Shown here piece after piece: positions 2,189-47,017 of a stretch of DNA of 64,000 nucleotides. The notes under the pieces are model-generated. The model made no database searches and was not told where the DNA came from. It saw only the letters and a program-made list of their open reading frames with translations. The DNA is from Octopus vulgaris. Its lineage: Eukaryota. Made by a program: the position numbers and the translations under genes. Numbering within the stretch: the first letter of the stretch is position 1; each line of letters opens with the position of its first letter. The DNA lies in NCBI GenBank assembly GCA_951406725.2, contig OX597821.1, positions 52,266,001 through 52,330,000 on the forward strand, given 5' to 3'.

Positions 2189-2442
2189 TATCGTTTAAAG
2201 TTCTGTTTGGAATTGCTACAGAAATTTACGCGACGTACATACATCGATGACAAATTTACATATTTTTGTCAAAATTCACCCTCCCTCTCTCCACACACAA
2301 ACACGCACACACACACACACACACACACACATACACACACACACACACACACATATATATATATATATATGTAGGTCCCGGGTTGATTCGGGGTTAACCA
2401 CAGTAAATAAGGTACTCAATACATAGCAGAGTAAAATTAATT

Positions 2443-2554
2443 TATTATATAGAAGGAGCTTCTACAGGACTGTTTCATTCAAGAGAAATCATCAGGATTT
2501 CCTGATGATTTCTCTTGAATGAAACAGTCCTGTAGAAGCTCCTTCTATATAATA
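2443..2554. repeat. Perfect 55-bp-arm palindrome in a PLE-like unit (2371-2554) with a degenerate hammerhead core
   Basis: 2443-2497 is the exact reverse complement of 2500-2554 (2-nt spacer). Contains CTGATGA (2502-2508) ... GAAACAGTC (2521-2529). Flanked by (TA)n. Confidence 0.85.
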
Positions 2555-2759
2555 TATATATATATATATATATATATATATATATATAAACGATATGGGC
2601 AGGCTGCGTTTATAGACATAAGGGAATATATTCTCATCAATTCGCCTGGTGTTAAAAAACCAGGAAGTCACAGACATGCATGATAACTAGCATCAGGTCC
2701 CGTTATAGGATATATGTGTATGTGTATATGTGTGTGTTAGCGTGCGTGGGTGTGTTTGA

Positions 2760-3010
2760 AGGTGCATGGCTTAGCGGTTGAGGTGGTGCACTCACGATTA
2801 CGAGGTCATGGTTTCGATTCCCAGACCATGAGTTGCGTTGTGTTCTTGAGCAAAGTAGCTGAGCGATCATTTCGTCATTTGGAATATCGCACATTGTGCA
2901 CCTCTGCAGCTAGTAACGATTTGAAAGCTTATGTGAATAGAAATATTTGACCACTGTAAACAAATCATCTATGTGATTGTTCGGCTAGAAATTACAGAAC
3001 CCTGATAAAG
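2760..3010 (+). mobile_element. Degenerate tRNA-derived SINE (S3-type head)
   Basis: GGTGCATGGCTTAGCGG ... GGTTTCGATTCC resemble A and B boxes; similar to 16855-17005. Confidence 0.55.
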
Positions 3011-3025
3011 AGTCTACTCATGTCG

Positions 3026-3705
3026 TGTATATATATATACATTTATATATACATACAATTATATATATATATATATATATATATATATATATATATATAT
3101 ATATGTACATACATATATATCCATATATATATATATACATACATATATGTACATACATATATATATATACATACATATATGTACATACATATATATATAT
3201 ATATATATATACATATATATATATACATACATATATGTACATACATATATATATATATATATACATAAATATATATATACATATATATATATATATATAT
3301 ATATATATATACATATATATATACATACATATATATATATATACATATATATATATATATATACATATATATATATACATACATATATATATATACATAT
3401 ATATATACATACATATATATATATATATATACATAGATATATACATATATATATGTATACATATATATATATATATATATACATACATATATACATATAT
3501 ATATAAATACATACATATATATATACATATATATATATATACATATATATATATACATACATATATATTTATATATACACACATATATATATATATATAC
3601 ATATATATATACATACATATATATATATATATACATACATATATATATATATAAACATACATATATATATATATATACATACATCCATATATATATATAT
3701 ATATG
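3026..3705. repeat. Complex (TA)n/(TACA)n microsatellite
   Basis: Directly visible; it generates the YIYI ORFs. Confidence 0.98.
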
Positions 3706-3749
3706 ATTGATCGCTAGCCACTGGACCTTTTTTATATTCTCCCTATTTA

Positions 3750-3783
3750 TTTCTGTTGAAGAGCGTAGGCTCGAAACGTAAAA
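3750..3783 (+). ncRNA. Minimal type I hammerhead-like motif (variant core) in PLE-like fragment 3706-3880
   Basis: TTT-CTGTTGA-A-GAGC(GTAG)GCTC-GAAAC-GTA-AAA. One core substitution relative to CUGANGA. A partial reverse copy of the host fragment lies at ~31047-31140. Confidence 0.5.
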
Positions 3784-43060: not shown

Positions 43061-43692
43061 TTTAAAATTAAGGATAACATCTTTATAAGAAATTATCAGT
43101 AGTTAGCGTGAAAAACCTCGTAAGAGAAAAAATCTGTAAATTTTTCCACTTTGAAAATATTTATTTATATTATATAGAGGGTACTATTATTCATAGGTAC
43201 TACTTTTCAAAGTGGAAAAATTTACAGATTTTTTTCTCTTACGAGGTTTTTCACGCTAACTACTGATAATTTCTTATAAAGATTTTATCCTTAATTTTAA
43301 ATTTATATTTTTCACCGGAATAGTTCAATACTGAATTTTTGTTCCGAATAGGCAAATTGTTACCGAAATGCATTGCGAATGAGCTCGCCATTTTCATAGA
43401 TATGTAAAGATAAACATTCGTACATGCTACGATGAATTCTACGGTTGTCTGTCGGGTATGCTATCTTGTGTTTTTTCTTACATGTCTTGAGTTCGTTGCA
43501 CTGAAGAGCATAGAATGCATATTCTGCATTGATTGCGAAATCACAGGTGATATGTAACTAAATTCTGTTTTTAAATGACTTGCTTTGAAGTTTTGCATTC
43601 GGTAAAATTTGTTTATTTTAGTAGTTTTTACTGCAAAGGTCCCTCCTAGCGTGCGGTACCTATGAATAATAGTACCCTCTATATAATATAAA
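43061..43692. mobile_element. PLE-like unit with two interleaved inverted-repeat pairs
   Basis: 43061-43157 versus 43204-43301, and 43164-43200 versus 43656-43692; between (TA)n tracts; internal hammerhead. Confidence 0.8.
43495..43558 (+). ncRNA. Type I hammerhead ribozyme
   Basis: Stem I GTTGCA/TGTAAC, CTGAAGA, stem II GCA...TGC, GAAA, stem III TCAC-AG-GTGA, AUA cleavage triplet. Confidence 0.8.
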
Positions 43693-43854
43693 CATATATA
43701 TATATATATATATATATATATATATATATATATATATATATATATGTGTGTGTGTGTGTGTGTGTATTTGCATATATCTATATGTGTGTGTATTTTGTTT
43801 TGAATTTGTGTGAGTGTGTATAGTATAATACGTAAATTGAATAAAGTAAAATTA

Positions 43855-44360
43855 TAGTCTGGTTTTCTATTATTCTATTTTAACAAAGTTAGCGCTTTCA
43901 TACGTAGTATACTTATCAGGTTTCAAATGTGTTTAACTGACTGTTGTGTTCTTGACAACTTTAGTATCTCTTAGAATGCCCCAACCAGATGAATTTATAG
44001 AATACTTTTTTGATCAAATCCGCATGTTCTTAAACATCACAGTTTTCCAGGTGTACTGATATTCTGTCACTTGTTTATATTAATTAATCCTCATTATTAA
44101 CTAGTTGTTATATTATTGCTATTATTTCCGTTCAGAACAGGTTTGAACATTTTAATAAACCGTTTTTCTTTTATCTTTCTTCCGTCCTTACTTGCGTCAG
44201 GTAGTTTGTAAAAAGGAACAATTAGAAACATTTTCTGACCACATCTCTTTATATATGTTCGCTCAATGAAAACTGACGAACATTGGTTTTCACACACTAT
44301 ATATGAAAGCGTTAATTTTGTTAAAATACCATAATAAAAAAAACATGAAAACCAGACTAT
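43855..44360 (-). mobile_element. Penelope-like 3' fragment: GIY-YIG endonuclease C-terminus plus terminal repeat
   Basis: ORF 44097-44297 ends ...CGQKMFLIVPFYKL...RKIKEKRFIKMFKPVLN (R-x3-E-x2-FI-x4-P-x-LN pattern). Minus-strand CTGATAAG...GAAAGCGCTA hammerhead-like motif at ~43888-43920. ~43855-43905 is inverted at ~44298-44360. Confidence 0.7.
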
Positions 44361-44379
44361 GTTTTAACTTTATTCAACT

Positions 44380-45240
44380 TATATATATATATATATATAT
44401 ATATATATTTATATATGTATATATGTAAATATATATGTATATATATATATATATATATATATATATATATATATATATATATATATATACATATATATAT
44501 ACATATATATATATATATATATATATATATATATATATATATATACATATATATATACATATATATATATATATATATATATATATATATATATATATAT
44601 ATATATACATATATATATATATATATATATATATATATATATATATATATATATATATATCGATATTAATAATACAATAATTGTTTCTTGTCAGGAACAA
44701 AAAAAGTTTAATAGGACTGCTATAGAAGTGCTCTATTGGAAGAGACAAAAATATCAAACTAAAATCATTGAACAAGCAAATACAAGGTCATCCGGGTTAT
44801 ATGTTTATTCTATAATTAAATGTTCGAATTATGAAATGATATGCGGATGACCTTGTATTTGCTTGTTCAATGATTTTAGTTTGATATATATATATATATA
44901 TATATATATATATATATATATATATATATATATATATAATATATATATATATATATATATATATATATATAATATATATATATATATATATATATATATA
45001 TATATATATATATATATATATATATAATATATATATATATATATAATATATATATATATACATATATATATAATATATATATATATATATATATATATAT
45101 ATATATATATATATATATATATATATATATATATATATATATACATATATACATATATATATATACATATATACATATATATATATACATATATACATAT
45201 ATATATATACATGTATATATATATGTATACATATATATAT
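44380..45240. repeat. Long (TA)n tracts enclosing a 44-bp inverted repeat (44751-44794 / 44844-44887)
   Basis: Directly visible. Confidence 0.95.
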
Positions 45241-46463
45241 AGAATGAGAGAGACATACAGACGGACAGACAGATAGAGGGAAATAGAGGTAGCTAGCTAG
45301 CTACATAGTTAGATAGATAACTAGATAGACAGATAGGTGTGTCTGTAGACTGCTAAAAATGACACATTGCTATGAGTATGCAGCCTCATAATGAGGGAAA
45401 TGATATAAGGATCTTATGAAGGATTTATTTAAGCCATCATCTGAAGAAGCCCATTCTACACCTTGCACATCTCAGTATGTACAGGTGTAAAACTGTATGT
45501 ACAGGTGTAAAACTGTCTCGAAACAATTGCTGTAAGTTTAAATAAAATTGCTGTTCAATTGGTTTTCTATCATTTATATATCTCTGTCTGTGTCTCTCTC
45601 ACCCCTCTCTCGCCACACACACACACACACACACACACACACACATACACACATATATATATTTCATTTATTTATGAGAGACTGGACAAATGAAAGAAAG
45701 GCACTCCACACGTTTATTGCGAGTTCACATGTATTGTTCAAAACAGTTTGATTCAGATCCCGTGCTACTTAACCTTTCAAAGCCTAACGGAGGCCCCGCC
45801 CTCAAGCCGGCGGGGCTTTGAAACTCTAAGTCATTAGAGGCTTTGAAAGTTTAAGTAGCACGGGATCCGAAAAAAAAAAAACTCTTTTGAGCAATATATG
45901 TAATTCTCAATAGAAATGTCGAATGCTTTTCTTTCGTCTGTCCAGTCACTCATAAATATATATATATTTATATATATATATATATGGAGAGAGAGGGGGA
46001 GAGGGAGGGAAAGAGAGAGAGACAAAGAGACAGAGAGAGAGACACAGTGAGCGATGTATAAATGATAGAAAACGAATTAAACGGTAATTTTTATTTAAAA
46101 TTACTGCAATTGTTTCTTGACAGTTTTACACCTGTGGTACATTACTGAGATGTGCACCCTTTTTAATCTATTGAAGGTGTAAAATGGGCTTTGTGAGATG
46201 ATTGTTTAAATAGATCCTTCGTAAGATCCTTATGTCATTTCACTCAGTGTGAGGCTGCATCCCATAGCAATGTGTCATTTTCAGCAGTCTACAGACATAT
46301 CTATCTATCTATCTATCTATCTATCTATCTATCTATCTATCTATCTATCTATCTATCTATCTATCTATCTATCTAGCTAGCTAGCTAGCTAGCTACCACT
46401 ATTTCCCCCTGTCTGTTACTCCATTTGTCTGTCTGTCTGTCTGCCTCTCTCTCTCTCTCTCTA
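45241..46463. repeat. Large diverged foldback (arms ~45241-45783 and ~45840-46463)
   Basis: Unique sequence and embedded microsatellites are mirrored (e.g. GTCTGTAGACTGCT/AGCAGTCTACAGAC, GATCCCGTGCTACTTAA/TTAAGTAGCACGGGATC); bounded by (TA)n. Confidence 0.9.
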
Positions 46464-46842
46464 TATATATATATATATATACATACGTGTGTGTGTTTGT
46501 GTGTGAATTTAGAGGAATATGTTACCACGGACACCGTGGTAGCCCTCAGTTATGTTCCAAGTTACGGCTAACCACATCGATTAGTACCAAACTTTTATGA
46601 CTTCTTGGTGTTGTTATGTTGTAATTCCTACAATGAGTAATTCTGTGTTCTCTTCATTGGACTGTAATATTATCTGGAGTGTATATTTCCAATAACTATA
46701 ATGATAGACAATACGGAGACTGGTATATCTTCAAAGTAAATAAAAGGAAATAAATTTTGAGGATGTAACAGTCTTCAAATTCTATATCATTATAATTATT
46801 GCATACACACACACACACACACACACACACACACGCACACAC

Positions 46843-47017
46843 TTTATTTAAAAGCAGCAGAAATTTAACAAAAGCTGTTACTGGGAGTTTCACGTTCCCG
46901 TTTGTCGGACAGTTTTGTTGAAATTTTTTTTTCTTTTTAAAACAAAACTGTCCGACGAACGGGAACGTGAAACTCCGAGTAACAGCTTTTGTTAAATTTC
47001 TGCTGCTTTTAAATAAG
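46843..47017. repeat. ~76-bp inverted repeat, PLE-like
   Basis: 46843-46919 versus 46941-47017. Confidence 0.85.
46948..46985 (+). ncRNA. Hammerhead motif with CCGACGA variant core
   Basis: CTGT-CCGACGA-ACG(GGAA)CGT-GAAACTC-C-GAGTA-ACAG: all three stems form; U4->C change in the core. Confidence 0.6.

Follow-up and report, generated by a model that had tools for sequence, protein, structure and literature searches.

Hammerhead-bearing repeats at (TA)n arrays of Octopus vulgaris: probable Penelope-like element ends and retrozyme-like monomers with a common insertion footprint

A stretch of the Octopus vulgaris genome (assembly GCA_951406725.2, contig OX597821.1, positions 52,266,001 to 52,330,000, forward strand), referred to here as the window, raises the question of what the short, mostly inverted units are that carry hammerhead ribozyme motifs and crowd into its (TA)n arrays. 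The window is 64,000 nucleotides (nt) long, in a genome of 2.8 Gb. An earlier interpretation made from the letters alone, the sequence-only reading, proposed many families of Penelope-like elements (PLEs) or retrozyme-like repeats that prefer (TA)n, and this proposal was borne out. All eight of its sites exist, with coordinates shifted by ~0-30 nt, and they belong to eight families, A to H, each found genome-wide. Families A, E and G are very probably 5'-truncated PLE ends inserted at (TA)n, while D and F are protein-free monomers with the same signature. Because D and F bear the insertion signature of the PLE ends, they were likely copied and carried by the same kind of Penelope enzyme. The units and the two related features of the window are as follows, with RT denoting reverse transcriptase and ORF open reading frame.

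Unit A, 2371..2557, both strands: inverted pair of putative Hydra-clade PLE 3' ends, with the tailed arm on the minus strand (2371-2497) and the short arm on the plus strand; both arms hold a type I hammerhead with an identical 6-nt deletion in loop III relative to the family.
Unit B, 3705..3885, plus strand: a lone PLE-type 3' end flanked by TA arrays; its hammerhead-like motif shows A6>U throughout the family (CUGUNGA).
Unit C, 3977..4407, both strands: old inverted pair whose plus arm bears a tail of ~140 nt; hammerhead-like motif CUGAAGG...GAAAC AGCU GUA, without clear stem II.
Unit D, 4454..4887, plus strand: piece of an ORF-less ~497-nt retrozyme-like monomer with TA on both sides; the inverted short arm spans 84 bp and the tail 105 nt, and the hammerhead (4594-4640) has lost 16 nt of stem II.
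Unit E, 31220..31767, both strands: inverted pair of putative Hydra-clade PLE 3' ends with TA on both sides; each arm has a hammerhead of the consensus type, and the plus arm a tail of 59 nt.
Unit F, 43056..43693, plus strand: a complete retrozyme-like monomer of ~495 nt without an ORF (43200-43691); an inverted tailed 3' end comes before it, and its consensus-type hammerhead occupies 43495-43558.
Unit G, 43801..44379, minus strand: putative Neptune-type GIY-YIG endonuclease C-terminus (44100-44288), 3' untranslated region (UTR) and 41-nt tail; damaged minimal hammerhead (~43877-43924) with G8>A and a broken stem I; inverted short copy 44296-44379.
Unit H, 46843..47091, both strands: inverted pair in which each arm holds a hammerhead with U4>C (CCGACGA); 74-nt tail on the plus arm.
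RT relic, 27742..28242, minus strand: disrupted N-terminal part of the RT (DKG...LRPI) from a Neptune-type PLE family, its DNA unrelated to G.
Extra type I hammerhead motif, 17654..17710, plus strand: CCGAUGA core with palindromic helix III, absent from the sequence-only reading.

Penelope-type ends and their insertion footprint

For each family, the best 24-29 of 337-3566 genome-wide candidates were analysed, with 40 scored. Judged by the coding sequences that adjoin them, A and E appear to be the 3' ends, or pseudo-long terminal repeats (pseudo-LTRs), of Hydra-clade PLEs, and G the end of a Neptune-type PLE. Linkage of A to an ORF was seen in two of five long loci: in L266 the order is ORF, ~3.2-kb UTR and hammerhead, and in L269 it is hammerhead, tail and ORF start. 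The ORF translated from L269 has RWR, DKT and CxCx5C, lacks CCHH, and has CxxC plus CxH around the conserved E and N, in agreement with the description of the Hydra clade in PMC8557442. This protein has 659 relatives at E<=1e-30, mostly of ~700 amino acids. One copy of E (L092) continues upstream into an endonuclease end in which only C-terminal Hydra motifs were seen, and a search with the endonuclease/UTR junction gave 24 other loci, of which 16 have the E hammerhead 234-1154 nt downstream of such a Hydra-type end. The Hydra-type ORFs seen with A and E are broken by frameshifts or stops. The longer copies of G encode a GIY-YIG domain with internal cysteines and a CX4CxxC linker, and the window copy is directly preceded by the endonuclease C-terminus. 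The sequence-only reading made its proposal hinge on linkage of such units to PLE ORFs elsewhere, and A, E and G are so linked. It also listed an RT and a GIY-YIG relic. The GIY-YIG piece does belong to a unit, G, but the RT relic represents a separate Neptune-type family; membership in G was ruled out by the absence of DNA overlap (14 relic-family loci compared with 24 G loci).

The Neptune assignments of G and of the RT relic were made by motifs, namely DKG, a CX2-5CxxC linker (which Nematis also has) and the GIY-YIG cysteines. The Hydra assignment was made by motifs and by-eye likeness to printed Hydra alignments. Pfam gave nothing meaningful for the pieces of the Hydra ORF, for the endonuclease fragment in the window or for a gag-like ORF discussed below, and a PDB sequence search gave no match, so the clade calls rest on motifs and homologues. 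There is no detectable DNA in common between any of the families A to H. Families B, C and H probably represent further ends of this type, although the search turned up no parent element for them.

Much of this structure is already published. PLEs with inverted 5' copies and a 30-40-bp tail at one end, and with a preference for (TA)n in Hydra, Neptune and Naiad, have been described, including the 2507-bp Hydra-1_Obim of Octopus bimaculoides, which lies at (TA)n (PMC8557442); the same structure is restated in PMC8969392. The parents of A and E resemble the Hydra clade of that description in protein motifs, TA target, near-3' type I hammerhead, inverted truncated copy and tail. They differ in tail length, 59-70 nt, and the A element, at ~5.3 kb including its ~3.2-kb microsatellite-like 3' UTR, exceeds the size given there as generally <3 kb. 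Compared by eye, the hammerhead of Hydra-1_Obim differs in sequence from those of A and E, and the ribozyme stems of H resemble those of the Hydra entry just before Hydra-1_Obim in the supplement (PMC8557442). G and the RT relic agree with the Neptune clade in DKG, the CX2-5CxxC linker, two GIY-YIG cysteines and a minimal hammerhead with palindromic helix III, although the window holds fragments only.

The 3' UTR of the A element in L266 consists of GT/AT microsatellite-like DNA, with a purine/pyrimidine alternation of 0.81 against a background of 0.52, and a Neptune-type copy (L299:1000-1700) has a CA-rich 3' UTR. Elements with such UTRs could spread microsatellite-like DNA as cargo.

In families A, C, D, E, F, G and H, the 3' ends of copies fall at two fixed points, one short and the other, the tail end, 41-142 nt beyond it; B was left out of the scoring, no tail being defined for it. 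Among 192 loci, 187 had a scorable main end, and 151 of these abutted (TA)n, defined as lying within 12 nt of (TA)4+, as did 57 of 73 inverted ends. By a near-identical rule, the background was 5.8% for a set of 20,000 random positions, and among 64 tail ends of short interspersed elements (SINEs) 12 qualified. Agreement was complete in A (29/29) and nearly so in E (25/28). This analysis of flanks in the sampled copies, of a kind that the sequence-only reading had suggested, found TA enrichment at the copy ends. Within the window the units generally abut (TA)n as that reading claimed, with the qualification that H has (CA)n on the left and (TA)n only on the right, and C has ~40 nt of mixed microsatellite on its left.

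Inverted pairs follow what may be called a one-tail rule, with exactly one tailed arm in 67 of 73 pairs and, for C to G, whose queries lacked the tail, in 38 of 43. Either arm can be the tailed one, and either can be the longer. Overall, the insertion structure of PLEs, comprising 5' truncation, an inverted 5' copy and a tail at one end, was encountered across the scored units. The tail corresponds to whatever comes after the pseudo-LTR in a tandem: in A the 5' leader of the ORF, and in D and F the beginning of the monomer that follows. Private variants were common to both arms in both variant A loci (L003 and L013) and in the window copy of A, which indicates that both arms likely derive from one template.

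These features can be accommodated in a single pathway. A tandem transcript would be cut by its own hammerheads and possibly ligated into a circle, and the GIY-YIG endonuclease would nick (TA)n. The RT would then copy across the ribozyme junction, starting at the fixed tail end, and the second strand would be primed or resolved at the fixed short end, giving an inverted copy of variable length. Because the inserts hold sequence from both sides of the cut site, the template would have to be uncut or re-ligated RNA. If this is correct, the one-tail rule in seven unrelated families would fix two priming or resolution sites in the unsolved integration of PLEs. For studies of that mechanism, young copies with both fixed ends, which number in the thousands, could serve as a natural data set.

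Retrozyme-like monomers and the weighing of explanations

Families D and F read as retrozyme-like monomers a few hundred bases in length, with no apparent protein coding and one type I hammerhead each. A direct repeat was found in 11 of 29 D loci, with a period of 433-498 nt. In F, 14 of 29 loci have one, and in 12 of these the period is 490-497 nt; in both families the tail sequence lies upstream of the body. Two hammerheads in tandem were seen in L063 and L147. The monomers have a GC content of 32-33%, and when circularised their longest ORFs starting with ATG are 36 and 45 amino acids. The predicted circular folds have z scores of about -5 relative to 30 crude shuffles. No long tandem array of either family was present among 58 loci of ~3.3 kb, in which partial tandems were common.

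The animal retrozymes were defined in PMC7229834, where PLEs are named as their likely mobiliser, and mobilisation by PLEs is further supported by co-occurrence and trees in bioRxiv 10.64898/2026.07.22.740005, the main text of which does not use the word 'tail'. Like the non-LTR retrozymes of these two sources, D and F are ORF-less and low in GC, carry one type I hammerhead per monomer, form partial tandems and a predicted well-paired circle, and coexist with PLEs. They differ in that their monomers are ~495 nt instead of the 170-400 nt given for invertebrates (PMC7229834; 10.64898/2026.07.22.740005), and in that the partial tandems are dispersed and show inversion, a tail and a (TA)n target. 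On balance, D and F seem to be animal retrozymes with a complete Penelope footprint of TA target, inverted 5' copy, one tailed arm and a junction across the cut. If so, they would provide direct genomic evidence that a Penelope RT/endonuclease copies ORF-less hammerhead circles in trans. The mobiliser of retrozymes has so far been argued from co-occurrence and trees (PMC7229834; 10.64898/2026.07.22.740005), and the footprint is a separate and more mechanistic kind of evidence. A literature search, outside which most subscription journals fell, found no report of retrozymes with this inversion-plus-tail footprint, which is not proof of novelty; neither 'hammerhead' nor 'ribozyme' occurs in the main text of PMC13282606. 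The new point is accordingly a modest one: retrozyme-like units bear the full PLE insertion footprint, and the one-tail rule holds across seven unrelated families. Otherwise, the units are largely explained as new families of known kinds and are mostly ordinary transposon debris.

One candidate for an autonomous parent of D was a gag-like ORF that follows the D tail in L067 and L077. It was rejected, as it belongs to a separate insert that resembles a long interspersed element (LINE), and of the 30 best copies of this insert 24 are not within D or F. This ~1.6-kb LINE-like element contains only a gag-like CCHC ORF (L298:540-2178, also L297, L312-L314, L328 and L329). Several loci have it at one and the same site within D units, and three near-identical loci have it within F. 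Since 24 of the 30 best copies are elsewhere, at most a subfamily of the element has a target preference for hammerhead repeats.

The closest competitor for D and F is that they are long fragments of pseudo-LTR plus leader, left by autonomous PLEs with rare or lost parents, and not independent RNA circles. Their footprint is the same as that of A, E and G, and only 29 copies of each were examined, of 2678 (D) and 2035 (F) candidates. However, D copies that pass the tail without a TA run continue into the next monomer and not into a PLE ORF, and the ~495-nt period recurs in 12 of 29 F loci. A match to PLE protein occurs in just 4 of the 58 D and F loci, and in these a (TA)n run separates the match from the unit. 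It is unlikely that D and F are such fragments.

Two further explanations concern the palindromes themselves. Short inverted-repeat units at TA resemble miniature inverted-repeat transposable elements (MITEs) of the Tc1/mariner type, and the similar centre of many A copies would suit MITEs or other TA-inserting DNA transposons in which the hammerheads are passengers. Such elements should have equal, fixed terminal inverted repeats, whereas the arms here are unequal (67 of 73 pairs) and variable in length, and many copies have no inverted arm at all. As A, E and G also continue into RT/endonuclease ORFs, this origin is already contradicted for those three and is very improbable overall. Alternatively, the inverted copies could postdate insertion and stem from gene conversion or fold-back repair at fragile (TA)n; such arrays form hairpins and are unstable. 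The private variants common to both arms fit this too, but the inverted arm stops at one of two fixed ends defined by the element, and in 67 of 73 pairs at the one opposite to that of the main arm. A post-insertion origin thus appears improbable.

Several observations weigh against an origin of the units as PLE ends and Penelope-copied monomers. In 8 of the 24 endonuclease loci no E ribozyme lies downstream; main ends of G abut TA in only 11 of 23 cases; and no ORF-colinear copy of B, C or H occurred among the loci sampled, few of which were long. D and F have no detectable DNA in common with A, E and G. The choice of best-match copies means that the sample leans towards young, query-like copies. 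Two of the families deviate family-wide from the canonical core, CUGANGA with stem II: C has CUGAAGG in 17 of 24 copies, without a clear stem II, and B a CUGUNGA-type core in which A6 is present in none of 17 readable copies (of 29). When six window motifs were folded as isolated RNAs, none formed a full hammerhead at lowest energy and none was stabler than shuffles. Such a failure to fold is to be anticipated of dimer-type minimal hammerheads, yet it lends no support. Cleavage, circles and transcripts of the units are likewise predictions from sequence.

Hammerhead cores, predicted folds and abundance

The remaining families have recognisable cores: CUGAUGA in 29 of 29 copies of A and 11 of 24 of G, CUGACGA in 25 of 29 of D, CUGAAGA in 22 of 28 of E and 23 of 29 of F, and CCGACGA in 20 of 29 of H. 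In the window, core starts of the CUGANGA type are at 2502(+)/2495(-), ~3753, ~4157(+) with an inverted partner, 4599, 31609(+)/31323(-), 43501, ~43919(-) and 46952. The sequence-only reading called three sites intact. This was correct for E (31609/31323) and F (43501), the only window copies that match their family consensus motif with a canonical core, but not for the copy at 4593, the D unit, which has the 16-nt stem II deletion. The window copies of A, D and G are all damaged relative to their own families. The inverted arms attributed to most units were recovered in A, C, D, E, F, G and H, while B has no inverted arm within the window.

Minimal hammerheads in PLE pseudo-LTRs, with many families per genome and low activity in vitro, have been described, as have opposite-strand pairs of hammerheads 100-700 bp apart in Schistosoma (PMC4209133). 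The octopus motifs have the same type I fold, with an extra nucleotide before stem II and palindromic helix III. A U3-A8 variant is reported there, but the available part of that source makes no mention of U4>C or A6>U, the family-wide changes of H and B respectively (PMC4209133). The unselected sample described below contained a family that is sister to B and has its core intact, either as CUGACGA or as CCGACGA (L333, L338, L340 and L349). As this family and H both include CCGACGA forms, U4>C is present in more than one family.

The sequence-only reading further supposed that the units, if transcribed, would give self-cleaving RNA and hairpin double-stranded RNA together. The predicted folds do not support this. 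In the symmetric palindrome E, the ribozyme would be wholly paired to the antisense arm, locked in a ~240-bp duplex, and the ribozymes of A, C and H would probably be blocked by their own antisense arms in the same way. In the predicted fold of D, in contrast, the ribozyme lies in the loop between the arms, outside the duplex, and from its position the F ribozyme should do so as well; D and F would be the only families of this kind. The long perfect hairpins would still be sources of double-stranded RNA if transcribed. Contigs from four runs, not on record as RNA, cover unit F piecewise; strand, ends and circles are not readable from them, and they were not used as evidence. For a second supposition, that the units expand TA microsatellites, the lengths of the (TA)n runs beside tail ends give no clear sign: the median is 35 nt in A and 22 nt in H, and the base-weighted background is 25 nt.

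The motifs in the window exceed chance expectation. A strict type I descriptor found two, compared with a mean of 0.03 in 30 shuffles, and a relaxed descriptor, tuned after the families had been seen, found four (CUGANGA) or six (with U4C allowed), compared with none in 40 shuffles. The window is AT-rich and dense in microsatellites; it has 156 (TA)5+ runs per 100 kb, and unselected DNA, for which 600 kb at fixed positions on 20 chromosomes were used, has 136. In that DNA the relaxed descriptor found 11 motifs (none in five shuffles), and families A to H together occurred 17 times. Motif density in the window is ~5x that of the unselected genome (6 per 64 kb and 11 per 600 kb), the window having been picked as rich. 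Because both families and motifs recur in unselected DNA, the window is richer than average and not unique. Extrapolated roughly, 11 motifs per 600 kb would correspond to some tens of thousands of hammerhead motifs genome-wide. An Rfam scan of the window gave 123 matches at E<=1, none of them to a hammerhead family; almost all were microRNA models on microsatellites and hairpins.

Other features of the window

Besides the motif near 17660, hammerhead-like motifs not included in the sequence-only reading were noted near TA runs or hairpins at 30244-30290 (degenerate, ~30250) and 25914-25960; only the one near 17660 passes the relaxed descriptor. Six inverted repeats (21907-22581, 44755-44883, 45672-45955, 46692-46799, 45340-46297 and 7791-8403) contained no hammerhead core by a loose pattern. 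Several of these core-less repeats lie beside TA, and they are possibly decayed PLE ends or MITEs. Finally, the long and GC-richer direct or inverted repeats at 39425-41282 and 54621-56508, at 54402-55847 and 58910-60325, and at 48516-49133 are probably LINE copies.

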